A stretch of DNA of 64,000 nucleotides from Minisyncoccia bacterium (GCA_046598345.1 JBKJIT010000004.1:265226-329225); one strand, 5' to 3'. Shown: positions 7,368 to 56,372, numbered from the stretch's first letter. The notes: generated from the letters alone by a model not told the origin. Translations and numbers: made by a program.

Positions 7368-7377
7368 TATCGCGCAC

Positions 7378-27417: not shown

Positions 27418-30400
27418 TCAATCACCGATGGCGTAGAAGATGTTCGTTCCGGTGTGTGCAACTCCAGCCACCCCCGACGGAATTGCAATACCCCAGTAGA
27501 GACGATCAGTAATGAGTGGAGTGGTGGACGTCGGTTTTGGTAGATTCAGTTCGTAGTTAACCGCTGATGTTGTGAGTTGCGTACAGTACACACAGGCACT
27601 GTATGTGAAGGTAGAGGTAGCATACTTTTCCTGTGTCGCAGGAATAACCGACGAAGCACCATCCGTGAGATCGGTACCTTGAATGGATACGTCAAGTGCA
27701 TCATTTCCAATATTTTCTACTGTCGTCGACGCATTGGTTGCACCTGTGTCACTATTCACCTCAAGAGCACCATATCCGATTGTACTATTAACGCTGATTG
27801 CGCGGAGCGTGAGGAGATCAATCGATGGTGCAGTTCCTGATGCTGTGGAGCCGCCGTCGTCACTCACACTCAGAGTTGCACGCCATGTTTCTCCCGCATA
27901 GGTACCAATGTCAGTTGGATCAGTATGATAGTAGAAATCAGCTGAGCAACTAACGTCACAAGAATTACCTGCACAATTACTAAACGTGCACTGCGCAGGT
28001 GCTGCGATATAGCAGTTGTTTGTGTTTGCGCTACATGAAGCCCCAACCCCGGAACGGTAGAACGTTGTTGTTGCAACATTAAGATCAGCATATCCGTTTT
28101 GATCAGTAACGGTACCGGTAGCAGTAATGGTTGAGGTTGCTCCGGGACTAAGGCTGATATCCATTCCAGCGTTCAATGAAAGTGACGTCACTGTTGGTAC
28201 AAAGACGAGTTCAAGCTCCGCAACACGTACGTACGAATCAATGGGACTACCACCGTCGCTTACACGGAGGCAGTAGTTTGAATCAGTTACATCAGTAGTC
28301 GAGGTGATTGCATACTCAACTTCTGTGTACTGGTTGGCGCCAACTCCAAAGCTTTGCGTGGAATTTGATGGATCCTCAATAATTTGTCCGGTAGTGAATG
28401 TTCCTGTGCCACCCAACACGTCCGTTGTCGAGGCCTGGTTCGCAAATTGGGAAGAGGAGACCATGCAGATTGGAGATCCGGTACAACTTGCCTGCACAGG
28501 TACGCTCGCATATGACGCAGAGGAAACAGATTCGCAACTTGGTGCATTACCTTTTGCTGCATACTCAAGCCGATACTGATCAGTGATAGCGAGTCCAGTG
28601 TTTTCAATGAGGAAACGCGGGCGCACGGTAGTATTTGCACTTATCCCAGAGGCCTTGGTGTTCAGCGCCGCAAACCAAGATGCACCTCCTGAGACTTGCT
28701 CGTATCCAAGTGTAGTTGTTGGTTCCGTTCCAAGAAGTGTTCTAGCAGAGTACACATCCCACGCACCGTGCTGCTCCCAGAAGGTAAAGCCGGTACCTCC
28801 AGTTGTGTAGGTGCCGTCTGTCACTGAAGTGGTAGCAACGAGTGCTCCATCTTTATAAAGGAACACTGCGATAGTGTCGTCAGTATCCCATTCAACCTCT
28901 ACCTCATACCATCCCGTTGCATACGTGAGTGTTGAGGATGCGAGCTGTGTTGTACCGGTATCACTATCGTTGTCGTACACGTCACGAGAGATCGAGATTC
29001 TATCAACACCGAACTGCTCGAGACATATACCATAGTTATCATGGAGCGTACCAGGAGACTGTACCCCAAAGAGCGTACACGTTTCGTCTCCGCTTGCTGG
29101 TGCAGATGTGTCTACGTACTTCATGAAGCGAAGCTTACTTCCCTGTGCGACCGAAGCATCAAAACGATGGATACCATGAGTGGTACGATCTCCCACCGTT
29201 ACTGCCTTTAGTCCATATGATCCCTGGTACGCAAGTGCAACACTAGTCGTGAACTTACTTGTATCATTCGCATACTCCGTGATGTTGTTATCTTCAAAAT
29301 CATCGTATGCAACAAACGTTGTGGTACCAACACCCCCGTCCGAGACTCCTCCATTTCCGTAGTACATGTAGAGTGTTGTGTTCGCGGAAGCAGTAAGTGA
29401 TGGAATTTTTACCCAGACAGTCGCTTCTGTGCTTGCGGTGTACGCGTCACGCACATAACTGAGCGTTGTTGTACCACTCGAATCCGTAAATCGAAGGTCG
29501 TCAAAGTCTGTCTGCATATCACCGTCGTATGGGATATCTACTTTCACCACCGCATTGGTATACGTCGTCGCATCCGCATTCACAACCGTGACACGCTTAC
29601 GTTTTGACCAGTTTTGGTCATACCACTCACTATTTGGTACACTCTCCCCCCCGTTATCATTTCGCCAGCGATACCCGGCCTGCTGGGTCAGGAGACACGT
29701 ACTGTCAGACCAGCGAATGGATCCGCATGCTGTAGCACCATCCACGTCGTACGCCTCACCTGCGAGATTGCCGCGGTGCGTCGTAAACGTCCACGCTGAA
29801 GGTGTGGTGCCCGTAAGTGTGATGTTTGTTCCGGAAATAGCAGTTGTGGTTGCAAAGCGCACACCAGTTATGACTTGGGATGCATTGTAGTTTACGGTCG
29901 TAGAGCTTACCGTAAGAAGTGTTCCGCCGTTTTGATCAAGTTCAAAATCTCCGTTCGACAATGAGGTAATTGTGGTATTTCCGGTGAGTGTTAGCCCATT
30001 CGGATTGAGATTCCTAAAGGCATAATTAAGTGCATTGAGCGTTCCACTATCCATTCGAATACTGTACGTACCACTTCCTTGGTTACGAACAGTCGTTGTA
30101 GCACCTGACCCTCCAAGCATATGAAGCGTGCTGCCGGTAAAGGTGGTCGTCGCGCCATTTGCAATTCGCACGGTGACTACACGTTCTGTACCTCCAAGTG
30201 CAGTCCCGTCGAAATCAGTTGCGTAGCTCCAATAATCGGTTCCCGTCGTGCGCTCATACTGACCATAGATGTTGAGCTCTCCGTTAACGGCAGCATGATC
30301 CTGTGAATACAGTGAGCTTAGGCTATCTTCCACTGTGGTGGTTGCCTGGCTATTCCATGTGCGAAGATCAGTATTATTTCCAATAAGGAGAATATTGTAA

Positions 30401-33400
30401 GATGTTCCTCCTGCAATACTCGTATTAATGGTATACGGCAGACCAGTTGTGATGCGGAGTGTGCTTCCCGTCCACGTACCTCCAACAAGGTTCGTAAACA
30501 CACCCTGCACGGTAAGCCGGACGCCGGAGCCAAGAGTAAAGGTACTTGCGCTCGTCAGTGAGAAGTTCGACGTGGTTGTTGCGTTATTCGTAATCGTATA
30601 GCCTCCACTTGGAGCTGCAATTGAAACAACGTTGAACGTCGAGCTTCCTGGATTAATGGTTTCACCCACATCGCTGGAGTTGAAAAGGATCGTGCCACTT
30701 GCGCTATTAAATGCTCCACCGAGATTGAGGAACGAACCACCAATAGCCATGGTCCCGGTCGCCAATGTTGCAGTTCCCTGTTCAATGCGTAGTGTTCCAA
30801 GGAGGTCCACATTTGTGTCAGTGAAAAGGTATTTTCCAAGTCCTGCAAAGGTTACTGAATATAGATCAGAGGTTGACGCCGTTACGCTTGTCGTCCCCGT
30901 ACCGGAAGCATTGAGGCGCAATGTTCCACTATTGTGCGTAAAGGTACCTGCAGTAATGAAGTCACCGCCAATCGCGAGGGTTCCACTTGGTGCGGTTACA
31001 GTACCTGAGAGAATGGTGTAATGCTGTGTTGAGGTTGCGTTCAAATCCTGGTACGTCCAACTACCACTTCCTGCAAAGGTCGTTGTACCAAAATTCGAAC
31101 CATTAGTCCTAATAGTTTCTGCGGCAGCACTCGTGAAGCGCATATGTCCACCATTTTGGATAAATGTCCCGCCTGTATTACTGAGTGAACCTAAAATTGT
31201 TGTCGTACCTGTAGGTAAAGTGAGTGTTCCCTGTGTAATGGTGAGATCATTCGCAAGATCGAGCGCCGCATTTGTAACGGTCCAACTTCCAGAGCCATTT
31301 AGAGTAAGGTTGTAGAGTGCATACTCATTGGTATCGATCGTGCGCGCTGCCCCATTCGTCGTAAACGTAAATGTAGAAGTCTCGTCATCAATAGATGCCC
31401 CACTACCACTTATGAGGCTTCCTCCAATTGAGTGGATCTCGCTTAGGGTTGCGTCAAACACCGCATTCGTGAAAAGTTCAAGCGTACCATCATAAGGAGC
31501 TCCCGCACCTCCACCCGAAAGGGTGACGTTTCCATCGGGTCTAAACGTCTTTCCATTCCAAACAATAAGTTTTCGATCTGCAGGGAGCGTGAGTGTATCT
31601 GACCCAGCATCCACCGCAGTGAACGGTATGTCAGCGTCATCAGACGAATCCCAGACCGCCATATCAGCAATGGAAAGTGGGTCGGTATCCTCGTGACGCA
31701 CGATAATCCTATTTTCATAGAGATCCATATTGGCAACACTTGAAATCAAATCCTCCGAAACTACTGCTGCCTTTTCCGATTCTCCATCAATATAGACAAT
31801 GAGCGAATCACCAGGGCTGTACGTTACACCAGGGATTGAATACAGCCCACTGCCTCCATTGCAGCTCGTCGTGAAGCTCGTGAGCCCCGCCACACGTAGG
31901 TGAATATTTGCCGTGCTGCCATCACATACCGTTGACACCGTAGAACCTTCGTCGCTGTACACGCGACCTGAAATGGTGACTGCGGCAGCACTATCGTCCC
32001 ACACCACATATCCCGGGTCACCATCAGGGTCAACGTCGTATGATTCTCCGTCAATCGATCCACTATGGTTCGTGAAGCGCCATGAGGAAACTGATGTTCC
32101 TGTTGCAGTGACGTTGAATGCTGAAATGCCCGTTGAGGTACCAAACGTATTATTCGTAAATGTCTTCGCAGGATTTTGATTAATGACATTTCCACCCACG
32201 GTAATCGCACTACCTCCACTTTGCGAAACTACAAAGTCTCCGTAGGAGAGACTTACGATGTTTGGTGTTCCGGAGAAGACAAGGCCAGACGCATTAAGAT
32301 TTCGCGTCTCGTAATAGGACATGGTGGTCGATGCGCTGCCCCCGACGCGGAATCCATATGTGCCAGCACCCTGGTTTTGAAGTGTGGTTGAAGCACCGGA
32401 AATTCCCAGTACGCTCAATCCTCCACCCGTATACAGTGCGCTTGAACTGGACGCGAAGTACACATCCACCTTTCGGCTACTGCCTCCAAGTACTGTTCCA
32501 TCAAAGTCAGTTGCGTAGCTCCAATAATCGGTTCCCGAAGTCTTTGCGTAGCTTCCATATATATAGAGTGCGCCATTCACGTTTGCGTGATCCTGTGAAT
32601 ACAGAGACCCAGTGCTTGCTACGGTGGTAGTACCGGCACTCGAGTTCCACATTCGAATTTGTGTAGTTCCACTTATGGTAAGGGTACCGTACGTATCAAT
32701 CACCGACGAAGTGTTAATTTGGTAGTTCCCTCCGCCGTAGAGATGTAATGCAGAATTTGTCCATGTTGTAGCAGCACCACCCAGGCTGTTAGTGAATGTT
32801 CCCCCGACCGCGAGTGTGGCGGCGGGATCAACTGTAAAGCTTGTTGCATTCGTCAGTGTAAACGCTGTTGTTGCGGTCGCGTGTTCAGAAATACTCCAAG
32901 TGCCAGCAGCGTTTATTGTTACGTTACTGAACGAGGAATTTCCTGCTGCGATAGTTTTCGTGCCGACTGAGTCAAAGGTTACGGTACCGCCACTTCCCGT
33001 GAAGGTGCCATTATTGTCCCAACTTCCTCCCACCATAAAGGATGCGCTGTCACTTCCAATAAGCGTACCAAACGATCCGATTGTTACATTTCCGTTTACG
33101 TCGAGAGCGGTGTCATTCGTCGTAACTGTAAGTGTTGACGTTGCTCCCGCGCCCACTGTGAGATTATTCAAAACCACAATTCCGAGACCCGTAGTGGTAA
33201 AGGTTGGCGAACTACCCTGTGCATTCACATCTACATTGTAGTAATTGGTGGAGAGTACGTTTGAACCTGCAGTCCCGCTGTAGCGCACCGTGCTTGTACC
33301 TTCAACAAAACTTCCAGTTTCTACAAACACCGTACCTGCTCCCTGAAGATTCAAAACTCCACCCCCGGGTACAAAGAAGTGCGCATTTCCGATCGTCAGT

Positions 33401-36400: not shown

Positions 36401-39400
36401 GTGACCGTAAGCGCATTATTTACATCAAGAGGTGTAATCAGATTCCATGTTGCAGCACCAGTAGTTGTCCCAAAGGTAAGATTATAAAAGGATGGAGAAA
36501 GTGCCCCAGTCTCATCAATTGATTCTGTTGTTGAAGTCGCCGTAAAGATGACAGTGGAGGTACCTGCAGTTAATGTGGCGTTGTTGTCCCATGAACGTGT
36601 AACGTACATCGTATTTCCATCAAGTGTTGTAGTGCCGTTGTTTTCAAAGTAGTTAACATCAACTGTGCCCCCTGGCCGATATGTAGAACTTGCCATAACA
36701 TACAATTCCGCAGTACCGCACGTAGTCTCCACACACATGTCTAGAATTGTACCGGTTCCATCAAAGAAGAGATCTTCGTCATTCGTAGCATCATACAAAG
36801 CGATCTGCGCATTAGTAAATGCAGTTGTCGTCGCGTCATTTGAGCCAAGGGTGAGATGTTGCTCATAGAGACGCATACCTGACATATCTCCAACGCCATC
36901 ATAATGTGCAACAGAAACCGCTTCATTCACTTCATTTGCACCATTTACGAATACAGTGACCACATCTCCAGGAGACGCATTTACATTAGGAATTGACCAA
37001 GCTCCAGCTGCAATTGTGCCGGTCTTGCCAATTTGCAATGACCCGTTTAGTGCCACCGCTACTGATCCTGCGGTTACATTTGTTGACTGATCGTACGCCT
37101 GAGCAGTCCCAGAGAGAGCAATCCCAGCAGACCAGGTAATAGTCCAATCAGAAAGTGTAGGACATGTGCCACCACTACAACTCATATTTGCTAAGGGTCG
37201 TATGAGACTGTATGTGGAAACCGGAAGCACGTTGGTTAGATTGATAGGACTTATCGTTGTGCCTACTGAATTTCCTGGAATGAGTGAGTCTGGTATAAGC
37301 TTCCAGCTGCTTGACGCTGTGTCGTAGTATTCCACCTGGTGCAAAATGCTCGAACCGCCGGGCTCACTATCAATCCATGACATTTGTTGGAAATACGGAC
37401 CAGAGCCATCATAGAAATTGATCTCTGTTCCCACAACAGTTCCACTCGTCACGGGATTTTTCGCCGTAATCATAAACGGCTCCTTAAAAGGAACTGCGCC
37501 CGCGGCACCGTTTGTCTCAAGCGTTTGCGCTGGAGCCCACCAGTCGCTACTCGTTGAATAGGTAAAATCATAGCGATCAGTTGAGGTCGCATACGACATC
37601 ACCTGGATAGTGTTGTCTCCTGTACGTCTTGCTTGTACGCGAGGACCTTTTCCTGTTGTGGTTGCCGTTACTTCCCCGAGCCACGCTACGCCATCCCACG
37701 TACGCGACTGAATGTTTGTTGTGTCACTATATACCGCCCGTATGTATCCATCTCGCGAACCTCCTACTTCAAAAATACAATCAATAGGACGATCTTCATA
37801 GATATTACCAGCAGTAAGGCCGGCTGTTTCAAGTTCAATCTGACCGGTAAATGCAGCGCCTGTCCAGCGAACTGCTCCTATGTCTCCATCTTGGTCGACG
37901 TAACATAATGCCATGTTGTCACTGCCATCATCAGCAGCCATGGAGCCGGCTTCAAAATCATCTCCCAACGCAACGGTTGCTGTGGCCGTCCACGCAGAGC
38001 CATTCCACGCACTCCAGGCAAAGCTTGCAGCTGTACCATTTGATACTGCGATGACTGCCTGTCCCCCGCTCTCCTCATATTCTGCAGCAATACCTTCATG
38101 GTTGGCCTGATTCATAGACCCCAGTCGAGCAGAGTTTCCCCATGCAGAGCCAGTCCACACGCGGGCCTCATACCCAGCACCACTCGTGTCCCTGGTTACT
38201 GCAATAATTTCATCCGAGGTTGGATCAGAAATAAGCTTTATCCATCCGCAGGTGTTACCGTTCACAAGTCCAATGGTTGCACCTCCCAGTGTCCAACTCG
38301 CGCCATCCCATATCCAATAACTTGGGTTGCTATCCCCATCGCAGGTAACAACGAGCGCATCTCCCGATGTTTGTTCATACGCAATATCAAACCCACGCAT
38401 GTTCGTGTTTGATAATGCATTTGTAACTTCCTGAAGATCTCCCCAACTACCATTCTGATACACCTGTATATTCACATCCCCATCAGTGCCTACCGTTCCC
38501 AAGAGATACTCGTTTTCACTTGGTGCTGAACGTGTAACGACCCAGGTGATAGCAGCACCAACATCAAGCGCGCTGGCCTCTGCCGACCAGGAAGACCCAC
38601 TCCAGACACGGTACTGCGGAGTTGTCAGTAATCCTTCTGCGTATGCAATGAGCGATTCAGTTGATGTCGTTGCTACAGTTACCGTGTTTCCTGCTTGCGT
38701 AATTGCACCAGAAAGTACATCCGTATCAAACTGTGATTGGGTAGTTTGGAACCAAGTTGAAACGGTCACGCTCGTATCAACGGTAATACTTTGTGGATCG
38801 GTATAAAAGGAATACTCATTACTACTGAGCGGATCTTTCGCTCGGATACGCCACCAATACGTAGAACCGTTCGTGAGTGCATCTCCAGATTGCAACGTGA
38901 ATTGGATAGTGTTTCCAGAGGTAAATGGATTTAGATCAGCTCCATTCGTGATATTCACAAATCCGAGACTGGAAGACGAGTTACGTGTGGTAGATGCAGT
39001 AAAGGTGTACGTGGTTGACCACTGAATCTCGTATTCAAGATCATCGCTTTGCGGGTCAGTGGTTACGAATTCAAACGTTGGCGTAGTGGTACTAACTTTT
39101 TCATTATCAAAAGGAGCATTGATGGTCGGTGTCTCAATGCGATAGCCCCATGAAAGTGTCCAATCGGAAAGCGTTGGAGACCCACCGGAATTCGTAAACA
39201 CAGCAACAATTCGGATAATTCGGTATGTCGAGACATCCATCGAAAGAAGGCTCACACCCGACGTGTCGAAGCCAGTGCTATTCCCCGTGAGCGCAGTGTC
39301 TGGCACATTAATCCACGTCGCTGATGCATCACTATAGTACTGGATGCGGTATTTGATATCTCCAACTGTTTCGTTATCGACGAAGGAAAGTGACCCCCAC

Positions 39401-42400
39401 GCGTTTCCCTGCGATCCATCGAGAAAATCAATTGCTGAAGATGTTGTCGTGCCAGTTGTTGAGCCAGTCGCAAGCTGCACTAAGTCGGTGACCAGAGCAT
39501 CCGTATCAGAGAGTGTGTCCGTATCAAACTGCTCCTCGGTTGTTTGGAACCATGTTGAAACTGTCGCGCTGGTATCGATAGTGAAACTGTATATCGTTGA
39601 CCATTCTCCCCACGTATTTGATCCAACAGTATCCTGTGCACGTACACGCCAATAGTATGTTGTGTTGTTGGTGAGTGCGGTTGTTGGTGAGTATCGTATT
39701 GTTTCACCGTTAGTGTATGGGTCCTTATCAGCGGGGGTATTAATATTCTCAAACAGTGTTGAGTTTGAAATCGTATTATGATCAATATTAGCCGAAGAAA
39801 AAGTGCGATCGTCATCCACCTGGATTTGATAAGAAAGGTCGTCAGCCTCCTCATCCGTTCCCGCAAATTCAAATCGAGGGAGCGTTGTTGACGATTTTTC
39901 ATTATCAAAAAGTTTTGAGAGAATGGGCGCTTCTGGTGCACTATTCGTGAGAAGCATTGGATACTGGCTGTACGCAAAGAGCGTCGTGTCATCAGACTTA
40001 ACCATTCGAAAACAATAGAGCGTCTCTGCGAGTGCGCCATTATGTTTAAGCACAAAATCCCACTCTCCCTCCTGTCCGATCCCGATCGAAGTAGGAAGAA
40101 CCACCGTCGGGTTTTGCTCTTCATATGTTTCGAGTATGTCAGTGCCCGTTAAGGTTGAGGTGGAAAGTGTAGCGCCATCACTCGGACTCGCATTGTTGTA
40201 ACCAGTCCATACAGCAGAGGAGGTAGCGGAACCCACATCGGTCCACGTACCCACTGTAGTACACACCGAGGTTGTCGTTCCAAATTGAAGCTTGAAATCC
40301 TCGCCGGTCGTGGTTGAGTTGCGTACATTAAGCTGCAATCGTAACCGAACGACGTCATTGTATCTAAGGGGAGTAAATGATGAATCAATAGCTTCGTTTT
40401 CTGCTACGTCTTCAGTACTTGTGGGCCAAGCATCACTCACGGTCGCTGAGTTCACATTTGTATACCAGCGATACGCAGACTGTGTATAGATTGGAACCAA
40501 TCCATATCGTTTTGCAAAAATAACCGTTTGGTATGGGGGAGTGTTTGATGCAATGGTGAAACCACTAACATCGATGGCATGGGTATGCGATCCACTCGAT
40601 CCCGTTGCACCCGAGCGGGCATTATCAGTCGATGCTGTTACCGCTGAAACAACTCCTGGCATATCAGCATGTGTGTGTGTATCGCTTCCACCGGTTGTCC
40701 CGTACGTCGATGCTCCCTTGATGTACCGATTATAAAAGGGATCTCCTGCTTGCCCTGAACGATTGAGCCAGCCTGCAGGAGGTGTATCGCTCCACATCGA
40801 GATAGACGTGAGAGGCGTGGCCGTAGCAGAGGAGGAAGTTGCAAAAATAACTTCGATATAGGGCGGTTCTTGACTTAAAGCAGGAGTAGAGCTGCTCACC
40901 GTATGTGTATGAGATGCCGCCGCCGCAGTGACCTGAGTACCTCCTGTCCTTGAGTTAACGGTCGCTCCACTTGCAGCATCTGTTGTTCCACTCACACTAT
41001 GGGTGTGAGTGTTGGTTCCCGCGCTCGTGATGGTATTTTCTCCATATGGATAGCGACTATCGAGAGGGGTGTATTGTGCCCACCCGGAAGGCAGTACACC
41101 ATCGAATATTAAGACTGCCCCCGCAGGAATTGTTCCTGGATCTCCTGCGCTATTATTTTGAATGAAACGAAGCTGACGATAGGCAGGGAGTGTACTTGTG
41201 CTCCCAATTGTTGGCGTAACTGTGTGGGAGTGAGCGGTAATACTCACGAAAGCACCGGCATTATTTTCCGCATTCGTGGCGGTACTTGCATTCACAACAG
41301 CACTGGCTGTGTGACCCGATGTAGCCGTTCCTCCAGTGGTGCCATACGATGCATCTCCTTTAGGGAACCGCTGATAAAAAGTGCTTGTTGAGGCACATGA
41401 AATACATGTCCAGCCTGAGGGAATAGTAGAAGTGCCGGTCCAGAAGAGAATCATGCTTCCCGTTGCATCAGAAGCAATCTGCCATGCACGATGTTCGACA
41501 AAGTCTGGCACGGGAAGTGAAGCCTCCCCACTCGTGTCAACGATTTCTTCCGGTTCATTTGTAACAGTTTCGTTTGAAACACTCGGTGTTACATCTTCTA
41601 CAGTACTAGTCGCTTCATCTGGAGTAATTGTTTGAGTTGAGACATTCTCTTCTTCTATCAGTACTTCTTCTGTAGGTTCGATGGGTTCAGTGTCAGTTTC
41701 TAAGGAGGCAGAAATATCAGTAGGTGAGGAAACGATTTCAGGTTCGGTACCTTCCTCTTCCACTGCCTGATTACCATCTTCTATGGCATCCGTTTCATCA
41801 ATGGGTGTGAAGATGGTTTCAGATAAGAGCGGTTCACCGTTTGTAGGAAGCGTTTCCTCGATAATAACCCCTCTGTCAACTCCCCGCACTTCTGCCGGCC
41901 CGAGAGTATACAGATACGGAGAAATGTCTGGAGCATCAAATGTGTAGCTAAACGTTTGTGACTCGTTGGCACCTAGGTTCACATTAAAAGTAAGAATGTG
42001 TTCGCTCTCGTTTGTTGTTATCTCCGCGTCAGTACCGCTTACTACAAAATCTCCCGGCACGTGTTCAATGAGTGTGCCCGTAAATGCATTCACTGAAGTG
42101 AGGGTTATCTCCATCGGATATTCCGAAAGTGGATAAATACGTGTTGGGCCTTCACGCATGAGTGTTATTTCATGCGCTGTGACAACCTCCACAGTATCGC
42201 TCGTGTGAGAAAGAACATTTCCTTCATAGTCGACACGCTCTACATACAGCTCGTAGGTACCTGGCACGTTCGGCACAAAGGACGCGGTGTAGTCAGGTAC
42301 GTCAATCACATTATTTCCATTACAGAATCCAGACGGGGTGATAGGTGCACGTGAAATGAAATCAGTTGGATCAATAATGTATAGCTCAAGATTTGCGTCA

Positions 42401-44181
42401 CAAAGCGTATTCCCGCCCTGAGAGAGCGCTCCGAAAGAGAGCGTCGCGGTATCTCCTACGGTATATTTACTTTGACTTGGATTCACCGCGAGCATACCCC
42501 ACTGGAAATCAAACGAATCGGTAAAAATCTTTCCACCTTCATTGATGGTAAGTTCGATCGAGTACGTGCCTGGCTGCAGATTTGTAAGATCGGCAGGATC
42601 AATTTGAATAGTCCATAACCCGTCAACGGTAGTATCAATATCGGCATCTATAGGCACAATACCTTCATCTTTTCGAATTATTGTTACCCCCTCAACCGTC
42701 GCAAGCCTGTCAGAGAAGATGCTTCGGAACAAACGGACCGCAGCATTTCGCTGGGATTCGTATCGGAGGACAAACGTAGGCTCTTCCGTTCGGGTGAAGT
42801 CCAACGAAGTGCTGATGAGTTCATGTTTTTCTGGGAGTGTTAGATATTCAAGGAGGGACGGGAGTAATCGCGCTCGTAATAGTTCCTGATCAAAAATCTC
42901 AGTACTAATTTCGAGCCATGCCGCATCTAAGTACAGTGCTTTTAATCCTCCGGCATCACCACGGTATACCGCACGCACTTCAAGATCTTCGAGTTCGTGT
43001 ACATCCTCGAGTGTTGGGAGTGCAAAGAGGAAATATCCACCATTTAGTGCATTCGAAACCTCTGAATCCATGAGAATTGCGCCCGCATTCACCCACTCAT
43101 CCTTAGTACGATATTCAATATCGAGCATCGGGACAGAGAGCTCGGGGACACTCTCGTATTGCGCTCCAAAAGAAATTCTCAGTTGCACGTTCGTAATGAA
43201 TTGCCCTGACCCAAGTGAAGGAAGAGCAAAATCACTCATGAGTACTACAGGTTCAGGTGCGGTAGTCAAAGGCACCGGAAGAACGTTGCTTGTTTCAGTA
43301 CCAACTGACTCCTGAACCACCTCTTCATTTTCTGTACCACTAAGAACTTCTTCAGATATTGTTTCACTCACCTCACTATCAGCTCCATCCAGTACCACAC
43401 TGACTTCAGATAATCCTGTGGATTCCGTCGCTTCAGTATTTGATTCAAGTGGCGTAACAATGTGCTCACTTGCAAACGGGAGAAGAGCAGTAAATTTGTT
43501 AAAGAACGCGAAGATAGGAGAGCGCACACCAATAAAACTTGTTGGCACTGACTCCGTTGCCTCTACCTCCCCGTTCTCTACCTCCACACTCTCCGACTCT
43601 ACGGTTTGCTCTGGTTCATTTTGACTTTCTGTTGTTATTTCAGGTGCAATATTAATAACTTCTTCAGAGGAGTTTGTGTTTTCAATAATTGAATCAGTAT
43701 CACTGCTCTCCAATTCTTCAGAATAATTTGTTTCAGATTCTTCATCAATAAAAGATGCGGAATTGGATTTCTTAAATGCTTGAAATATTCCGTCTTCTTT
43801 AACATCTCGAGACCCAATCGTATCTGTACGTAGCCAGTCACCTCCCTCTACCTTGCCAGGGAATACATGCAACGTGTCTCCTTTTTTTGTAAGTACTGTT
43901 CCTGAATCAACGTGAGAATATGAAAAGAAAACACATATAAGTAAAAGTCCATAGAGTACTTTGTGTGTTTTTCGAATTTGTCGAAGAGAAACATTTTTTG
44001 CATGTACTAACAGATGTAATCCACAGCGAACTGGATGGACACTCTCACCATAGGAAAAAGCAGACGATGTAGCATGTATCGCTGTAAATAAGGCTTTTAT
44101 GATACTTTTTCTTGTTTTATCTGAGAAAAATCTCATTACCCGAACAAGCAAGTCCAACCACTGAGTTAGAGTGGGTGGCAA
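27418..44181 (-). CDS. giant (~5570-5587 aa) secreted multi-domain adhesin-like protein: beta-helix-type repeats, FN3/Ig domains, LamG-like domain, three phage-tail-collar-like (SHTH/PPY) repeats, RW(R)NDNG…YCFR modules, C-terminal module 'B' (…YWGIAIP…)
   Basis: Uninterrupted 16.7-kb ORF with an N-terminal hydrophobic signal (VLYGLLLICVFFSYSHV); the exact start is uncertain (44181 or 44136). A ~330-aa block containing 'SLYSQDHxxxxGxLxIxGxYxxTSGTxYWSxxTDFDGT' repeats three times. 'PSGWxC…FYxRxxKGxxxYGTTGG…HTHxV…PPYxxVIFA' occurs three times. The C-terminus is homologous to 17764-19590. Confidence 0.85.
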   Translation of the reverse strand: MPPTLTQWLDLLVRVMRFFSDKTRKSIIKALFTAIHATSSAFSYGESVHPVRCGLHLLVHAKNVSLRQIRKTHKVLYGLLLICVFFSYSHVDSGTVLTKKGDTLHVFPGKVEGGDWLRTDTIGSRDVKEDGIFQAFKKSNSASFIDEESETNYSEELESSDTDSIIENTNSSEEVINIAPEITTESQNEPEQTVESESVEVENGEVEATESVPTSFIGVRSPIFAFFNKFTALLPFASEHIVTPLESNTEATESTGLSEVSVVLDGADSEVSETISEEVLSGTENEEVVQESVGTETSNVLPVPLTTAPEPVVLMSDFALPSLGSGQFITNVQLRISFGAQYESVPELSVPMLDIEYRTKDEWVNAGAILMDSEVSNALNGGYFLFALPTLEDVHELEDLEVRAVYRGDAGGLKALYLDAAWLEISTEIFDQELLRARLLPSLLEYLTLPEKHELISTSLDFTRTEEPTFVLRYESQRNAAVRLFRSIFSDRLATVEGVTIIRKDEGIVPIDADIDTTVDGLWTIQIDPADLTNLQPGTYSIELTINEGGKIFTDSFDFQWGMLAVNPSQSKYTVGDTATLSFGALSQGGNTLCDANLELYIIDPTDFISRAPITPSGFCNGNNVIDVPDYTASFVPNVPGTYELYVERVDYEGNVLSHTSDTVEVVTAHEITLMREGPTRIYPLSEYPMEITLTSVNAFTGTLIEHVPGDFVVSGTDAEITTNESEHILTFNVNLGANESQTFSYTFDAPDISPYLYTLGPAEVRGVDRGVIIEETLPTNGEPLLSETIFTPIDETDAIEDGNQAVEEEGTEPEIVSSPTDISASLETDTEPIEPTEEVLIEEENVSTQTITPDEATSTVEDVTPSVSNETVTNEPEEIVDTSGEASLPVPDFVEHRAWQIASDATGSMILFWTGTSTIPSGWTCISCASTSTFYQRFPKGDASYGTTGGTATSGHTASAVVNASTATNAENNAGAFVSITAHSHTVTPTIGSTSTLPAYRQLRFIQNNSAGDPGTIPAGAVLIFDGVLPSGWAQYTPLDSRYPYGENTITSAGTNTHTHSVSGTTDAASGATVNSRTGGTQVTAAAASHTHTVSSSTPALSQEPPYIEVIFATSSSATATPLTSISMWSDTPPAGWLNRSGQAGDPFYNRYIKGASTYGTTGGSDTHTHADMPGVVSAVTASTDNARSGATGSSGSHTHAIDVSGFTIASNTPPYQTVIFAKRYGLVPIYTQSAYRWYTNVNSATVSDAWPTSTEDVAENEAIDSSFTPLRYNDVVRLRLQLNVRNSTTTGEDFKLQFGTTTSVCTTVGTWTDVGSATSSAVWTGYNNASPSDGATLSTSTLTGTDILETYEEQNPTVVLPTSIGIGQEGEWDFVLKHNGALAETLYCFRMVKSDDTTLFAYSQYPMLLTNSAPEAPILSKLFDNEKSSTTLPRFEFAGTDEEADDLSYQIQVDDDRTFSSANIDHNTISNSTLFENINTPADKDPYTNGETIRYSPTTALTNNTTYYWRVRAQDTVGSNTWGEWSTIYSFTIDTSATVSTWFQTTEEQFDTDTLSDTDALVTDLVQLATGSTTGTTTSSAIDFLDGSQGNAWGSLSFVDNETVGDIKYRIQYYSDASATWINVPDTALTGNSTGFDTSGVSLLSMDVSTYRIIRIVAVFTNSGGSPTLSDWTLSWGYRIETPTINAPFDNEKVSTTTPTFEFVTTDPQSDDLEYEIQWSTTYTFTASTTRNSSSSLGFVNITNGADLNPFTSGNTIQFTLQSGDALTNGSTYWWRIRAKDPLSSNEYSFYTDPQSITVDTSVTVSTWFQTTQSQFDTDVLSGAITQAGNTVTVATTSTESLIAYAEGLLTTPQYRVWSGSSWSAEASALDVGAAITWVVTRSAPSENEYLLGTVGTDGDVNIQVYQNGSWGDLQEVTNALSNTNMRGFDIAYEQTSGDALVVTCDGDSNPSYWIWDGASWTLGGATIGLVNGNTCGWIKLISDPTSDEIIAVTRDTSGAGYEARVWTGSAWGNSARLGSMNQANHEGIAAEYEESGGQAVIAVSNGTAASFAWSAWNGSAWTATATVALGDDFEAGSMAADDGSDNMALCYVDQDGDIGAVRWTGAAFTGQIELETAGLTAGNIYEDRPIDCIFEVGGSRDGYIRAVYSDTTNIQSRTWDGVAWLGEVTATTTGKGPRVQARRTGDNTIQVMSYATSTDRYDFTYSTSSDWWAPAQTLETNGAAGAVPFKEPFMITAKNPVTSGTVVGTEINFYDGSGPYFQQMSWIDSEPGGSSILHQVEYYDTASSSWKLIPDSLIPGNSVGTTISPINLTNVLPVSTYSLIRPLANMSCSGGTCPTLSDWTITWSAGIALSGTAQAYDQSTNVTAGSVAVALNGSLQIGKTGTIAAGAWSIPNVNASPGDVVTVFVNGANEVNEAVSVAHYDGVGDMSGMRLYEQHLTLGSNDATTTAFTNAQIALYDATNDEDLFFDGTGTILDMCVETTCGTAELYVMASSTYRPGGTVDVNYFENNGTTTLDGNTMYVTRSWDNNATLTAGTSTVIFTATSTTESIDETGALSPSFYNLTFGTTTGAATWNLITPLDVNNALTVTRGTLARGTVGITVGGSLSNAINGIWTGLGTTTFDGSGTSNWSDANATLQNIGRVVIDGTSKTLALLTNVKAQSITIGVDDIFDVTTGNYNTTVMSDWVNHNTFVARSGTVYFDATTTNRVITAGGDAFYNLNFIGQGGAWAFTEADLTISNDLTIATGTVTMPTGTTTLAGSWNSVGGTFAHNNALVYMTAGTAETIAASGTVFTNAFYNLRFTGSGSWSFLDTSATTSNDFVLTQGSVTLPSAQLSIGGHFTNSAGTFTHNSGTVRFTSATTKTIDTNSSFSSLLFTGSGGWSFVDTNVTAVGDLTVSGGTVTLPGGTLTLGGSFTNAATTTHNSGTVLFNATSLGKTLTTGNSNLYNVTINGVGGGFTVASHATTSNNFTLATSSAFTLSSGATLAVFGTFTNSVGGASTTWSGSTLSLEAGAYSLNTKNTLGDAYGTLRLRANTDIRMWNSTSSTYTVDSTGSLYSQDHNGIDGDLYIFGGYERTSGTEYWSAPTDFDGTSLLGSTRIARVRFASSSSALFTGSTLSITGTSTATTSIANQGSGTYTIGVANGTTSAAFYSFSNLGASGISLSGTTHVSALSDGEIIPGIAAGTGITVSSTTVNANAELQIYRVNFSTTTAIAATNITQTDGTPTTYWWFRESSGNIDGEAFDNDTGDPGSIRWDDSSLTITVSGTVYGADETTPLGAPTCGVGTPVRVVVSNGGTYDGACNGSGVYSIPGVVVIGNPTLTVFLNGASNGERAVAVTKTPTADISDLNLMVNRVIVRHEDVDAMTIADMALYDSTDDSDVPFTAATGSPNSLLVQANTELHVWATTTFTPGGTVTLTSGGTGTSYDGSLHLDNASIFTGAGTTTYSIGGSIFQDINATYVPASTTIIMTATTSGKTISTENSETVRFNELDFTGVGGAWNINGNASATANIYVSTGTVTGTGNISLANGSLYGNGLLSLGSGTTTIASTNTLGGSQAWTFGNLVLGNGTSVGTTTSATTATTTILGKLTIGNAHFFVPGGGVLNLQGAGTVFVETGSFVEGTSTVRYSGTAGSNVLSTNYYNVDVNAQGSSPTFTTTGLGIVVLNNLTVGAGATSTLTVTTNDTALDVNGNVTIGSFGTLIGSDSASFMVGGSWDNNGTFTGSGGTVTFDSVGTKTIAAGNSSFSNVTINAAGTWSISEHATATTAFTLTNATSFTVDPAATLAVGGTFTNSLGGAATTWTNSALHLYGGGNYQINTSSVIDTYGTLTISGTTQIRMWNSSAGTTTVASTGSLYSQDHANVNGALYIYGSYAKTSGTDYWSYATDFDGTVLGGSSRKVDVYFASSSSALYTGGGLSVLGISGASTTLQNQGAGTYGFRVGGSASTTMSYYETRNLNASGLVFSGTPNIVSLSYGDFVVSQSGGSAITVGGNVINQNPAKTFTNNTFGTSTGISAFNVTATGTSVSSWRFTNHSGSIDGESYDVDPDGDPGYVVWDDSAAAVTISGRVYSDEGSTVSTVCDGSTANIHLRVAGLTSFTTSCNGGSGLYSIPGVTYSPGDSLIVYIDGESEKAAVVSEDLISSVANMDLYENRIIVRHEDTDPLSIADMAVWDSSDDADIPFTAVDAGSDTLTLPADRKLIVWNGKTFRPDGNVTLSGGGAGAPYDGTLELFTNAVFDATLSEIHSIGGSLISGSGASIDDETSTFTFTTNGAARTIDTNEYALYNLTLNGSGSWTVTNAALDLANDLTITQGTLTLPTGTTTILGSLSNTGGTFIQNGGHMRFTSAAAETIRTNGSNFGTTTFAGSGSWTYQDLNATSTQHYTILSGTVTAPSGTLAIGGDFITAGTFTHNSGTLRLNASGTGTTSVTASTSDLYSVTFAGLGKYLFTDTNVDLLGTLRIEQGTATLATGTMAIGGSFLNLGGAFNSASGTILFNSSDVGETINPGSSTFNVVSIAAPSGGYTITNNATTTSNFSLTSASTFTLGSGVRLTVQGVFTNLVGGTWTGSTLRITTGLPYTINTSIAGGTSYNILLIGNNTDLRTWNSQATTTVEDSLSSLYSQDHAAVNGELNIYGQYERTTGTDYWSYATDFDGTALGGTERVVTVRIANGATTTFTGSTLHMLGGSGATTTVRNQGSGTYSIRMDSGTLNALNYAFRNLNPNGLTLTGNTTITSLSNGDFELDQNGGTLLTVSSTTVNYNASQVITGVRFATTTAISGTNITLTGTTPSAWTFTTHRGNLAGEAYDVDGATACGSIRWSDSTCLLTQQAGYRWRNDNGGESVPNSEWYDQNWSKRKRVTVVNADATTYTNAVVKVDIPYDGDMQTDFDDLRFTDSSGTTTLSYVRDAYTASTEATVWVKIPSLTASANTTLYMYYGNGGVSDGGVGTTTFVAYDDFEDNNITEYANDTSKFTTSVALAYQGSYGLKAVTVGDRTTHGIHRFDASVAQGSKLRFMKYVDTSAPASGDETCTLFGVQSPGTLHDNYGICLEQFGVDRISISRDVYDNDSDTGTTQLASSTLTYATGWYEVEVEWDTDDTIAVFLYKDGALVATTSVTDGTYTTGGTGFTFWEQHGAWDVYSARTLLGTEPTTTLGYEQVSGGASWFAALNTKASGISANTTVRPRFLIENTGLAITDQYRLEYAAKGNAPSCESVSSASYASVPVQASCTGSPICMVSSSQFANQASTTDVLGGTGTFTTGQIIEDPSNSTQSFGVGANQYTEVEYAITSTTDVTDSNYCLRVSDGGSPIDSYVRVAELELVFVPTVTSLSLNAGMDISLSPGATSTITATGTVTDQNGYADLNVATTTFYRSGVGASCSANTNNCYIAAPAQCTFSNCAGNSCDVSCSADFYYHTDPTDIGTYAGETWRATLSVSDDGGSTASGTAPSIDLLTLRAISVNSTIGYGALEVNSDTGATNASTTVENIGNDALDVSIQGTDLTDGASSVIPATQEKYATSTFTYSACVYCTQLTTSAVNYELNLPKPTSTTPLITDRLYWGIAIPSGVAGVAHTGTNIFYAIGD

Positions 44182-48339: not shown

Positions 48340-48506
48340 GGTTAATTCTATTGTACCGCACTGTGACTCTAGAGATGTACAGGACTGAGTATAATCGTGA
48401 GTGTATCCATCTCTTCGCCGTTTCATCATATAGACACGACATGCATGTGCATATGCACACGCAAAACAAGTAAAGCAATTGAGTAGAGAGTACTATTACT
48501 CATAAT

Positions 48507-51247: not shown

Positions 51248-51377
51248 GATTTTATTTTATATGCGTATAAATACATGAGATATGTCGCTACTCAAAATGA
51301 TTTTGTATTGATTCAAGTATATAAACACTTGGCTCAATCAACAAAGGACAACTCAGGGTTACCCAATACCCCCAATG

Positions 51378-51839: not shown

Positions 51840-51873
51840 ATTGCTTATACTATATCAGTGCGACACCGTGTAT

Positions 51874-53178: not shown

Positions 53179-53179
53179 A

Positions 53180-54093: not shown

Positions 54094-54094
54094 A

Positions 54095-56371: not shown

Positions 56372-56372
56372 A

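Follow-up and report, generated by a model that had tools for sequence, protein, structure and literature searches.

A giant mosaic protein of a Patescibacteria bacterium with the look of a surface fibre and a module related to phage tail proteins

Gene Structure and Integrity

The window analyzed here, a 64,000-nucleotide stretch of DNA from a Minisyncoccia bacterium, carries on its minus strand a giant gene, to which all protein features below refer. The whole open reading frame (ORF), including a stop-to-stop leader, occupies 27418..44181 and comprises 5587 codons. Translation of the window gives zero internal stops across this interval, in keeping with the original prediction of one uninterrupted frame, and the intact ORF with its several distinct modules also bears out the idea of a single giant mosaic gene; the size of "5.6-kDa-residue" in the title of that prediction is a slip for ~5.6 thousand residues, or ~585 kDa. 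The probable coding sequence (27418..44136) specifies a protein of 5572 aa and 585 kDa with a pI of 4.2. Amino acid positions are given as ORF codon numbers, in which the probable start codon, ATG at 44134..44136, is codon 16. This is the sole ATG, GTG, or TTG between codons 12 and 103, and the similarity to the N-terminus of the orthologue P0194 starts exactly at it ('RFFSDKTRKSII' vs 'RFYSQKTRRKNI'); the ATG at 44136 is likely to be the start of the coding sequence. The first TTG of the ORF, at 44181, which overlaps a TATAAT hexamer, was rejected as a start codon. The TATAAT and a hairpin upstream of the giant gene are direct observations from the sequence, and neither was called in a scan for consensus promoters and terminators. 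The neighboring genes include a type IV pilus cluster and genes for proteins that combine a signal peptide with cohesin, dockerin, FN3, or Ig domains.

The giant gene is real and intact, and misassembly does not account for it. A Logan contig, assembled independently, matches the window with 100% identity over 21.5 kb, including the first ~9.9 kb of the gene, and its reading frame is open through aa 3891. The contig ends at window position 32508, exactly at a 31-mer exact repeat with copies at 32507..32537 and 30215-30245, as in a k=31-type assembly; this 31-mer is the only exact DNA repeat of at least 20 nt in the gene.

N-Terminal Region and Extracellular Character

The protein begins with a basic segment of ~58 residues (aa 17-74; 43960..44133), conserved in P0194, for which a cytoplasmic location or the role of a long signal n-region is predicted; the first 100 residues hold 14 Lys and Arg vs 4 Asp and Glu. 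The only hydrophobic segment revealed by a hydropathy scan, 'VLYGLLLICVFFSYS' (aa 75-93; 43903..43959), is short and weakly hydrophobic with a mean hydropathy of 1.5, and could be the H-region of a signal peptide or a signal anchor. It lies ~59 residues from the ATG at 44136, matching the ~60 residues expected to precede it. A conserved 'HVFPGKVEGGDW' motif follows, and in all orthologues an equivalent hydrophobic segment, which looks like a cleavable signal peptide, is followed by the pattern 'h-h-F/L-P-x-x-V/E-x-x-x-W'.

The N-terminal extracellular region (aa 120-900; 41482..43824) consists of two acidic Ser/Thr-rich spacers, located by charge counts at aa ~120-330 and ~800-900, which flank uncharacterized beta-rich domains. 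Here Pfam gives only sub-threshold Ig-type matches, to Y_Y_Y and Filamin. In the giant as a whole, Thr, Ser, and Gly make up 36% of the residues, whereas Lys, Arg, Met, and Cys are few, and most of the 36 Cys occur as close pairs inside domains. The C-terminus ('...HTGTNIFYAIGD') has neither LPXTG nor a hydrophobic tail, and zero cohesin or dockerin matches are found in the giant by Pfam, while the neighboring proteins have them. Judged by its single N-terminal hydrophobic segment, its acidic Thr/Ser/Gly-rich composition, its paired Cys, and its signal-peptide neighbors, the giant looks like a secreted or cell-surface protein.

Triple HxH Module

Near residue 900 begins a module of three tandem units of ~107 aa (aa 908-1015, 1016-1122, and 1123-1235; 40477..41460), recognized by motifs, BLASTP, AF2, PHROG, and Foldseek. 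Each unit follows the order PxGW ... G-T-T-G-G ... HxH ... HxH ... P-P/A-Y, with PxGW at aa 921, 1031, and 1135 and PPY at aa 1106 and 1215, its place being taken by LPAY in unit 1. Identity between units is 30-39% (BLASTP E 7e-14 and 2e-08), and an AF2 model of the three together reaches a pLDDT of 86.7 and a pTM of 0.83 with equivalent strands in each unit. The HxH motifs stand at equivalent positions of units 1-3, and across 44 homologues each of their His columns is either invariant or conserved to 90% or more. All three units have the second HxH in full; in unit 1 the first HxH is degenerate (GHTA), so that one putative metal site would be left with just five His.

The triplicate had been expected to match the phage tail-collar family PF07484 (gathering score 24 bits), and this part of the expectation fails on the protein itself. 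PF07484 gives zero matches at E<=10 on any of the three units or on the 370-aa region, none in 2000-aa pieces, and none at E<=1 in the 44 family units (0/44), the phage proteins Pas28 and Pas29 being likewise unmatched. With respect to the collar motif P-x-G-W-x-x-C-D-G, the units retain PSGW, PSGW, and PAGW, and CDG is absent from all three. Only the distant homologues P0043, P0045, and P0051, which match the triplicate with E 2e-12 to 2e-5, reach the gathering score. Their 25.2-26.5 bits come solely from profile positions 1-22, which align with the 'IxxWxG...IPxGW' start of each unit.

The relationship to phage tails holds by other routes. PHROG 5795, a 'tail protein', matches the isolated 340-aa segment in two stretches (E 1.6e-11, 44.2 bits), spanning just profile positions 396-479 of 968, and the PHROGs find nothing in 2000-aa pieces. 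A Foldseek search against BFVD retrieves Pas28/Pas29 of phage phiAsp2 (E 2e-14, probability 1.0, TM 0.58) and, more weakly, a 'Phage tail collar domain containing protein' (probability 0.99) and a tail fibre. In addition, the triplicate matches Pas28 by tblastn (E 7e-4), and the family profile, searched against Pas28 and Pas29 alone, matches them with E 2e-35 and 3e-31. In phiAsp2, Pas28 and Pas29 come after pas27, which is annotated 'tail protein', and Pas29 is annotated as a possible receptor-recognizing protein with HXHY motifs. Collectively, the profile comparisons and the predicted fold show homology of the triple HxH module to phage tail receptor-recognition proteins.

The family is large, as 6,854 clusters (50% identity) match it at E<=1e-3, and it is without a Pfam model or a solved structure; neither the triplicate nor a single-unit profile matches the PDB by sequence, and Foldseek gives no significant PDB match. 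The search for related loci used an alignment of 13 closer sequences. Exactly three units per chain, each with HxH motifs, are found in every complete homologue checked, including the PF07484-positive distant ones and Pas28/Pas29. In trimeric fibres, HxH motifs serve as iron or zinc ligands, and those of T4 gp37 coordinate iron octahedrally, as summarized in PMC11705849. We infer that the triplicate is a single-chain pseudo-trimer, in which the three tandem units would be arranged around a pseudo-threefold axis as are the three chains of a phage fibre. The paired HxH motifs would then converge on one or two His-lined metal sites, thereby clamping the structure.

Central Domains

Between the triple module and the super-repeats lie several domains whose internal repeats were found by BLASTP among overlapping fragments of the giant. 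A 'YRWY' beta-sandwich-like module (aa 1236-1435; 39877..40476) has a relative in the ORF at 1170..7445 (BLASTP, 33% identity, E 2e-30) and a second, weak copy at aa ~5174-5325; Pfam finds nothing in aa 1236-1435. It is followed by a duplicated FN3/Ig-like unit with an accessory beta module (aa 1436-1682, with the duplicate from aa 1683; 38782..39876). Pfam Ig_Rha78A_N is matched at aa 1436-1534 with 30.2 bits against a cut-off of 27.4 (E 5.7e-07), and the second Ig-like copy is known solely from the internal duplication of aa 1417-1589 and 1683-1850 (45% identity, E 9e-35). Both agree with the FN3-like units proposed for this protein. The next part, a propeller-like region (aa 1850-2245; 37447..38634), was read from the sequence as about eight ~50-aa 'W-x-G-x-x-W' repeats; its internal repeat is weak in the fragment BLASTP, and it gives zero Pfam or PDB matches.

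Super-Repeats

Three super-repeats of ~780 aa (aa 2614-3391, 3396-4189, and 4189-4874; 29560..36342) were identified by HMM and BLASTP. Each is made up of a short-strand beta-solenoid-like stretch with ~75-aa sub-repeats, a 'SLYSQDH' block, and a Cys-paired Ig-like end. The three 'GSLYSQDH' blocks already described are confirmed (aa 2916-3279, 3717-4078, and 4477-4832; 48-55% identical, BLASTP E 1e-59 to 1e-75) and turn out to be C-terminal parts of these larger units. They share the near-invariant motif 'SLYSQDH..(D/N)G.LYI.G.Y..(S/T)G.(D/E)YWS.(A/P)TDFDGT', with 'GSLYSQDH' at aa 3059, 3858, and 4622, and conservation among paralogues and homologues reaches 90% or more in the columns W, Y, S, D, H, G, W, D, F, and G. 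The strong conservation of 'SLYSQDH...DFDGT' in all three super-repeats could mean catalysis rather than binding.

The beta-helix character proposed for these repeats is a plausible candidate fold. The AF2 model of a super-repeat is all-beta with short regular strands, and its top Foldseek matches in the PDB are all beta-helix or beta-solenoid proteins, among them tailspikes, PL6 alginate lyases, chondroitinase B, tapirin, Ag43, and HMW1, but the best E is 0.068 and TM does not exceed 0.2. By sequence, the super-repeat matches neither Pfam nor the PDB.

C-Terminal Domains

The super-repeats are followed by a DUF2341 domain (aa 4892-4968; 29278..29508), which matches Pfam PF10102 over profile positions 1-77 of 84 with 69.9 bits against a cut-off of 23.4 (E 2.6e-19). 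Next comes a ~210-aa domain (aa ~4969-5175; 28657..29277) that is 44-57% identical in seven orthologues. The strings 'KLRFMKYVD' (aa 5016) and 'WYEVEVEWDTDD' (aa 5091), on which a concanavalin/LamG-like region had been proposed, fall within it. That assignment was not recovered: Pfam gives zero LamG or ConA matches at E<=1, and phmmer and an 8-orthologue profile find nothing relevant in the PDB, DUF2341 being the only domain detected. A remote ConA-like fold of the ~210-aa domain is possible.

The C-terminal end of the giant is formed by module B (aa ~5235-5586; 27424..28479), which is Cys-rich and beta-rich and has neither a TM segment nor LPXTG. The module stands at the C-terminus, as foreseen, and is common to the giant (HMM E 2e-149) and the ORF at 17764..19590 (E 4e-63). 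It is also C-terminal in seven orthologues and forms stand-alone secreted proteins of ~300 aa; its 88 homologues are all from CPR or metagenomic sources, none with a Pfam domain, and a search of the PDB finds nothing. The wall-docking role once assigned to it is not borne out, as no known wall-binding or sortase signal was found.

Orthologue Family

The best orthologue, P0194 (5625 aa), is 60% identical and collinear over 5364 residues (aa 224-5587) in one HSP, and at least six further proteins of 5.5-6.5 kaa have the same module order. In seven orthologues, this order runs from the N-terminal hydrophobic segment through the triple HxH module at ~900-1500 and three super-repeat units to the C-terminal module B, and the giant shares its layout with the genome loci L004, L011, and L034. 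NCBIfam matched nothing in the whole protein, and a search of the open-access literature gave no description of the giant family or of a single-chain triple HxH module. From these comparisons, the giant is a member of a conserved, unnamed family of orthologous Patescibacteria proteins of 5,500-6,500 aa. The gene stands for a conserved family of ~570-660-kDa putative surface proteins, and nearly all of its sequence is outside curated domain families.

Possible Function

The giant can be described as a putative extracellular fibre of ~585 kDa, acidic, rich in Thr, Ser, and Gly and with disulfides, that is made by a Patescibacteria (CPR, Parcubacteria/Paceibacteria-type) bacterium. We consider it somewhat more probable than not, at roughly 55%, that it is a host- or substrate-binding surface fibre of a CPR episymbiont. 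CPR cells live attached to hosts (PMC7906910), and giant surface proteins have been proposed as CPR attachment devices (PMC8080830). The protein would be exported by the Sec pathway via its lone N-terminal hydrophobic segment and would stay attached to the cell, forming a long rod of many domains at its surface. The acidic spacers of this rod would be followed by Ig/FN3-like and beta-sandwich domains, then by the propeller-like domain, the three super-repeats, DUF2341, the conserved domain, and the Cys-rich end. The fibre would most likely recognize and bind a surface polysaccharide or protein of the host cell or substrate, and its partners in this would be the products of the neighboring genes, a type IV pilus and surface proteins with cohesin or dockerin domains. 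Apart from DUF2341 and one Ig-like match, Pfam, NCBIfam, and PDB sequence searches identify no adhesin, lectin, or carbohydrate-binding family in it.

The triple HxH module might, more tentatively, be a previously undescribed single-chain version of the trimeric receptor-binding fibre tip of phages, threefold and metal-clamped, which ultra-small episymbionts (CPR bacteria and some DPANN archaea) would mount on giant surface fibres to find and hold hosts. Doubtful as this proposal is, if true it would point to a host-recognition toolkit common to phages and cellular parasites. Of the devices by which CPR and DPANN might recognize and hold hosts, only type IV pili have, to our knowledge, been discussed widely. 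The confidently modelled, phage-tail-related module offers a concrete, testable candidate for host recognition. Moreover, the triple HxH module, the 'SLYSQDH' super-repeat, and module B are three uncurated domain families for which models would be worth building.

The protein might instead be a structural protein of the envelope or matrix, acting as scaffold or spacer in a fibrous coat of the CPR cell surface, in which module B would tie a lattice together with stand-alone module-B proteins and the neighboring cohesin/dockerin proteins. On another CPR contig, the stand-alone ~300-aa module-B proteins occur in tandem arrays that adjoin cohesin/dockerin genes, the same pairing is seen within the window, and the cleavable look of the hydrophobic segment in the orthologues would call for a second attachment point. 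In addition, the fibrous coat of Vampirococcus has been attributed to giant proteins (PMC8080830). However, the giant itself is without a cohesin or dockerin domain, any self-assembly of module B is putative, and one of the giant's modules has tail or receptor-recognition proteins for its viral relatives; we regard a purely structural role as rather unlikely. Should a structural coat be its only role, the finding would come down to an ordinary, if well-documented, giant surface protein.

A still less probable reading is that of a giant surface-bound enzyme degrading polysaccharides. Its super-repeats would resemble lyases or hydrolases, after the manner of tailspikes and PL6 lyases, and the invariant 'SQDH...DFDG' residues would make up active or Ca2+ sites with which the host envelope is opened. 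The high conservation of the motif columns and the uniformly beta-helical top Foldseek matches, with tailspikes, PL6 alginate lyases, and chondroitinase B among them, are consistent with this reading. However, those matches are non-significant (E>=0.07, TM<=0.2), the adhesins tapirin, Ag43, and HMW1 rank equally with the enzymes, and Pfam, NCBIfam, and PDB sequence searches give zero glycoside hydrolase or polysaccharide lyase matches.

The homology of the triplicate to phage tail proteins might also suggest that the gene is not a cellular one but codes for the tail fibre of a prophage or tailocin, or that it stems from a recent phage insertion. This origin is very improbable and was rejected. 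Among the ORFs scanned there are zero phage structural, integrase, or lysis genes; those present are for pilus, ABC transporter, sugar transferase, protease, and surface proteins. The GC content of the giant gene is close to that of its flanks, and the module accounts for just ~6% of the 5.6-kaa protein, the architecture of which is kept as a whole in many CPR genomes. Furthermore, a scan of IMG/VR found a close relative on one contig only, at a weak locus. Least credible, and already largely refuted, is an assembly chimera or a super-repeat number created or collapsed by misassembly: although the super-repeats share one exact 31-mer at which the k=31-type Logan assembly breaks, there is no second such repeat, the copies are divergent in protein sequence (48-55% identity), each distinct segment is used once in the window path, the Logan contig is identical to the window as far as the break, and orthologues of other species keep the same three units in the same order.

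Comparison with Known Systems

The nearest known counterparts of the triple HxH module are tail receptor-recognition proteins with HxH motifs, namely Pas28 and Pas29 of the Actinoplanes phage phiAsp2, together with PHROG 5795. They share the unit layout of the giant, (I/L)xxW/F..P.GW - G.TGG - HxH ... HxH - PPY, and three such units likewise make up each of Pas28 and Pas29. However, these are phage proteins, whereas the module of the giant is part of a 5.6-kaa cellular protein and not of a virion protein. Moreover, each unit of the giant has two HxH motifs, compared to 4-7 in the phage and PF07484-positive relatives. The likeness to fibres of the T4 gp37/gp12 type and to PF07484 proteins is more distant: the T4-type fibre is built from three separate chains and the giant from one, and the PF07484 collar proteins have the 'CDG' that the unmatched units of the giant do not.

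For the super-repeats, tapirin, Ag43, HMW1, and the P22/HK620 tailspikes stand at the top of the Foldseek list, and the super-repeat model is likewise all-beta with short regular strands; none of these beta-solenoid adhesins and tailspikes is a significant match. Also, the giant shows no autotransporter or two-partner-secretion (TPS) signature.

Two groups of giant proteins from ultra-small cells resemble the protein as a whole. The SPEARE proteins of Nanohaloarchaeota (DPANN), of up to 8,553 aa (PMC6642349), likewise run to several thousand residues, most of them extracytoplasmic, come from an ultra-small episymbiont, and have one TM segment together with domains of adhesion type; their authors note parts similar to CPR adhesion proteins. 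However, the defining features of SPEARE proteins are a cytoplasmic tail and domains of the serine protease and restriction-endonuclease kinds, none of which was detected in the giant by Pfam or NCBIfam. Their anchor is mostly C-terminal (PMC6642349), whereas the hydrophobic segment of the giant is N-terminal. The giants of Vampirococcus lugosii (1392-4163 aa; PMC8080830) are likewise mosaic, membrane- or surface-located proteins of an episymbiotic or predatory CPR bacterium that are proposed to act in host recognition and are encoded beside type IV pili. They carry WD40, PKD, DUF11, integrin, and fibronectin domains (PMC8080830), in contrast to the DUF2341, triple HxH module, and CPR-specific super-repeats found here. 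The giant described here is larger, and its likeness to the Vampirococcus lugosii proteins is one of description.

Integrity and Conservation of the Giant Gene

The giant gene (window positions 27418 to 44181, minus strand) was predicted to be one uninterrupted ORF, and it comprises 5587 codons with zero internal stops; residues are numbered here by codons of this full ORF, including the stop-to-stop leader. Its GC content is 0.47–0.50 compared to 0.42–0.47 in the flanks, so that the base composition is similar. An independent assembly, Logan contig SRR31159418_676983, matches window positions 34243–55769 at 100% identity with no mismatches or gaps, and this identical stretch covers the first ~9.9 kb of the gene. 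The gene is present on the contig as an open 3891-aa fragment that runs off the contig end, which corresponds to window position 32508. The contig stops there because the sole exact repeat of at least 20 nt in the 16.8-kb gene, a 31-mer found at 30215–30245 and 32507–32537 in the conserved '...YWSYATDFDG...' coding stretch, begins at 32507. The short-read graph broke at this one k-mer, which is common to the second and third of the three ~780-aa super-repeats. The contig, which comes from the same sample, thus represents a clean case of a k=31 graph break within the giant gene.

Collapse or expansion of the assembly across the repeat blocks, which the original prediction had raised, is not indicated: there is no sign of repeat collapse, the super-repeat copies are too divergent to merge, and each distinct segment occurs once in the window path. 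A full-length orthologue of 5625 aa (P0194) aligns with giant in a single HSP over aa 224–5587 at 60% identity. Further orthologues of 5515–6510 aa (P0219, P0186, P0226, P0204, P0215, and P0245) show the same module order, with a triple HxH module at ~900–1500, three super-repeats, and the Cys-rich module B at the extreme C-terminus. Across 48 genome loci, most triple modules lie within an ORF extending beyond the 10-kb flank, typically 830–1500 codons from the ORF start. Collectively, the independent contig, its explained break, the full-length orthologues, and the layout of the 48 loci show that the gene is real and that its mosaic is an inherited architecture rather than a chimera. An assembly artefact as the source of the ORF is the least probable of the explanations considered here, in view of the identity up to the break, the divergent repeat copies, and the orthologues of the same order.

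In a MAG labelled Acidimicrobiales (L006, 3–12349), the orthologue is interrupted within a super-repeat, leaving two ORFs (2874 and 1238 aa); a pseudogene, an error in sequencing, or a programmed event could account for this.

The Triple HxH Module and Its Phage Relatives

A triplicate carrying P[SA]GW and PPY motifs had been proposed to match the phage tail-collar fold. As a repeat it is fully supported: three tandem units of ~107 aa at aa 908–1235, with P[SA]GW at aa 921, 1031, and 1135 and PPY at aa 1106 and 1215, share 30–39% identity (E 7e-14 and 2e-08 in fragment-versus-whole BLASTP), far beyond chance. The tail-collar reading holds in part. The Pfam Phage Tail Collar model, PF07484, gives no match at E ≤ 10 to each unit or to the whole region, is not found in 2000-aa pieces of giant, and is absent at E ≤ 1 among 44 units of the family, for which only weak matches to YmaF, 'Phage tail repeat like', and Gp10_D3 were obtained. 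The kinship with phage tails is nevertheless evident from other comparisons. PHROG 5795, annotated 'tail protein', matches the triplicate at E 1.6e-11. A confident AF2 model of aa 901–1240 built with 44 homologues (pLDDT 86.7, pTM 0.83) predicts a strand pattern alike in each unit, and Foldseek against BFVD retrieves with it Pas28 (E 2e-14) and Pas29 (E 7e-14) of Actinoplanes phage phiAsp2, with a probability of 1.0 and a query TM of 0.58. Next in the BFVD ranking, a 'Phage tail collar domain containing protein' has a probability of 0.99, and a tail fibre of an Aeromonas phage one of 0.93. Pas28 is also detected by tblastn at E 7e-4, and the family profile matches Pas28 at E 2e-35 and Pas29 at E 3e-31, values from a two-sequence search that overstate significance relative to a database search.

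The genes pas28 and pas29 (L052, 6850–13568) directly follow pas27, which is annotated 'tail protein', and the Pas29 record reads 'possible receptor recognizing protein; contains HXHY motifs; similar to phage TuIa tail fiber'. Each of the two proteins has exactly three units in tandem, every unit with four HxH in strict periodicity, and neither matches Pfam. For the distant homologues P0043, P0045, and P0051, the PF07484 score does rise to the gathering cut-off, owing to the first ~20 positions of the profile, which align with the 'IxxWxGxxxxIPxGW' opening of each unit. Taken together, the profile and model comparisons indicate that the triplicate is akin to phage tail proteins of the collar/HxH type but has diverged from them, and that it falls outside PF07484 as defined; sequence profile and Foldseek searches found no related solved structure.

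Every complete homologue checked has exactly three units per polypeptide, with two HxH per unit in the close CPR proteins and six to seven in the PF07484-positive distant ones, and conservation of the His columns is 90% or higher, up to full invariance. In trimeric phage fibres such as T4 gp37, HxH motifs of three chains coordinate iron octahedrally (summarised in PMC11705849). By this analogy, we infer that the units, fused as they are, build within one chain a pseudo-threefold counterpart of a segment of a trimeric fibre. Six His for one putative site would then come from the second HxH motifs of the units (AHSHTV, SHTHTV, and SHTHAI), and five for another from the first motifs (GHTA, THTH, and THTH). 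The Ser/Thr/Ala/Gly-rich loops between the two HxH of each unit are poorly predicted in the AF2 model; these variable parts are candidates for exposed surfaces.

The family is large: of clusters formed at 50% identity, 6,854 match it at E ≤ 1e-3, and 914 still do so with a cut-off of E ≤ 1e-30. Many members are proteins of 3,000–6,800 aa. The module also occurs in small secreted proteins of ~500–590 aa, some with DUF2341. Four stand-alone proteins of ~510 aa in the family alignment (A3: P0008, P0009, P0014, and P0017) begin with 'WFSKWFILP...A(A/L)FTDTETS', a start that resembles SipW/TasA-type signal peptides, and end in a ~110-aa domain with a pattern similar to giant aa 1590–1682. Two MAGs with archaeal labels also encode the module, one labelled Woesearchaeota (GC 34%) in an ORF of more than 4845 aa (L040, 6434–20968) and one labelled Aenigmatarchaeota in an ORF of 743 aa (L047, 1823–4051). 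By these MAG labels, for which binning errors are possible, it appears in DPANN archaea as well as in CPR bacteria.

Super-Repeats and Other Modules

The three ~330-aa 'GSLYSQDH' blocks are likewise genuine repeats. The motifs lie at aa 3059, 3858, and 4622, and the blocks at aa 2916–3279, 3717–4078, and 4477–4832 share 48–55% identity, far beyond chance (E 1e-59 to 1e-75, fragment-versus-whole BLASTP). An HMM from one block and its homologues shows them to be parts of the larger super-repeats at aa 2614–3391, 3396–4189, and 4189–4874. The proposed beta-helix is plausible from an all-beta AF2 model of aa 3600–4110 (pLDDT 81.9, pTM 0.79), in which a run of 3–5-residue strands at short regular spacing gives way to longer ones around the conserved motif. 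Beta-solenoid proteins dominate the Foldseek PDB list for this model (tapirin, Ag43, HMW1, tailspikes, PL6 lyases, and RsaA), but none is significant (best E 0.068, TM ≤ 0.2). A word-indexed search found 22 super-repeat homologues, all of metagenomic or CPR origin and all lacking a Pfam domain. In the motif SLYSQDH..G.LYI.G.Y..SG.DYWS.ATDFDGT, ten columns show conservation of 90% or more among paralogues and homologues, which suggests that each protein has three copies of a functional site, be it for a ligand, for Ca2+, or for catalysis.

Among the remaining modules, DUF2341 is recognised at E 2.6e-19 and is followed by a ~210-aa domain conserved in seven orthologues. Two strings cited in the original prediction were located, 'KLRFMKYVD' at aa 5016 and 'WYEVEVEWDTDD' at aa 5091; its LamG/ConA-like region finds no signal at the sequence level in the post-DUF2341 domain by Pfam or PDB profile search. 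FN3-like units are present as predicted, with one FN3/Ig-like unit above the Pfam threshold and an internal duplicate, seen in BLASTP as aa 1417–1589 against 1683–1850. BLASTP also reveals a ~110-aa module repeated at aa 1575–1682 and 2245–2354. Residues 1850–2245 (window 37447–38634, minus strand) contain about eight ~50-aa repeats with 'W-x-G-x-x-W', which look like a propeller by sequence pattern and are reminiscent of PLL/tachylectin-type lectin repeats; Pfam and PDB sequence searches gave no match.

Module B (aa ~5235–5586) is rich in Cys, and all of its 88 homologues lack a Pfam domain. Its C-terminal position is confirmed in giant and in seven orthologues, and it also ends the secreted 608-aa product of the ORF at window 17764–19590 (minus strand; HMM E 4e-63, 30% identity), whose N-terminal ~220 residues have no match. 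It also occurs alone, in tandem ~300-aa signal-peptide proteins beside cohesin and dockerin genes in another CPR contig. There (L002, 1536–8939), a 1454-aa protein ending in module B precedes three tandem stand-alone module-B genes (309–312 aa, signal peptides), which are followed by three more ~300-aa genes, one with a dockerin, and then by a cohesin gene.

N-Terminus and Export

Start candidates are found at codons 1, 9, 11, and 16, and the next only at codon 104. The first TTG of the ORF (44181) overlaps a TATAAT hexamer (44186–44181), which is preceded by a perfect 14-bp inverted repeat (44222–44209/44202–44189, 6-nt loop) just past the stop of the upstream cohesin gene; both elements come from direct sequence reading, and a consensus promoter/terminator scan called neither. 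N-terminal similarity to P0194 starts exactly at codons 15–16 (giant 'RFFSDKTRKSII' versus P0194 'RFYSQKTRRKNI'), and the ATG at 44136 (codon 16) is the probable start. The resulting product has 5572 aa, 585 kDa, and a pI of 4.2. Counted from this ATG, ~59 basic residues precede the sole hydrophobic stretch (aa 75–93), in agreement with the ~60 residues originally noted. The stretch is short and of moderate hydrophobicity, and the motif 'HVFPGKVEGGDW' that follows it recurs at the equivalent place in every orthologue. In several orthologues the hydrophobic segment looks like a cleavable Sec signal peptide, and in giant it may be either a cleaved signal or a signal anchor.

Organism and Genomic Neighbourhood

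The giant gene belongs to a bacterium of the Patescibacteria (CPR). Homologues with a named source are from the Parcubacteria group, Candidatus Paceibacterota/Pacebacteria, Lloydbacteria, and Giovannonibacteria, and several are from MAGs that carry the label 'uncultured Candidatus Saccharibacteria'. Encoded in the flanks are signal-peptide proteins that carry cohesin, dockerin, FN3, and bacterial Ig domains, together with HSP20, an ABC ATPase, a MacB/FtsX permease, a sugar transferase, and a trypsin-like protease. Secreted proteins combining bacterial Ig domains with cohesin (window 44243–45769 and 10765–12480) or dockerin (46486–48429, 15586–16713, and 9361–10101) look like a non-cellulosomal surface system, and the same pairing adjoins the module-B genes of L002. 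A type IV pilus cluster (50789–58052, minus strand) with three prepilins bearing N_methyl motifs, PilM, PilC (T2SSF), and PilB (T2SSE and MshEN) lies ~6.6 kb upstream of the giant gene. A second large ORF of 2091 aa (1170–7445, minus strand) has no Pfam match and contains two copies of the ~200-aa beta-sandwich-like module of giant aa 1231–1439, the better at 33% identity and E 2e-30.

Proposed Function

We favour, with a probability of roughly 0.55, a giant surface fibre of an episymbiotic CPR bacterium. It would be exported through the Sec pathway to the cell surface, where it would present the phage-type recognition module, three solenoid-like repeats with their conserved site, DUF2341, the following conserved domain, and the Cys-rich terminal module, and would bind host or substrate surfaces beside type IV pili.

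An appreciably weaker alternative is a structural protein of the coat or of a scaffold, with module B as its docking part. In view of the recurring cohesin/dockerin neighbourhood, module B may have a role in docking or co-assembly; the wall docking originally proposed finds no counterpart in SLH, LysM, choline-binding, or LPXTG signals in giant or module B. A surface polysaccharide-degrading enzyme, for which the conserved super-repeat motif might be catalytic, is more doubtful still. A prophage tail fibre, which the kinship of the triplicate might suggest, is highly improbable, since the scanned ORFs, which cover most of the flanking ones, include no match to a phage structural, integrase, or lysis family.

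A surface fibre would fit the lifestyle of CPR cells, which live attached to hosts (PMC7906910). What looks new is a single-chain three-unit HxH module common to phage tail proteins and giant CPR/DPANN proteins, for which no Pfam model, solved structure, or description was found in the searchable literature. A role in attachment has been proposed for giant surface proteins of Vampirococcus (PMC8080830) and, under the name SPEARE, for those of DPANN Nanohaloarchaeota (PMC6642349). Giant mosaic surface proteins of episymbionts are already known as a kind, and since the giant gene has many unannotated orthologues in public data, it is a member of an existing, though undescribed, family.
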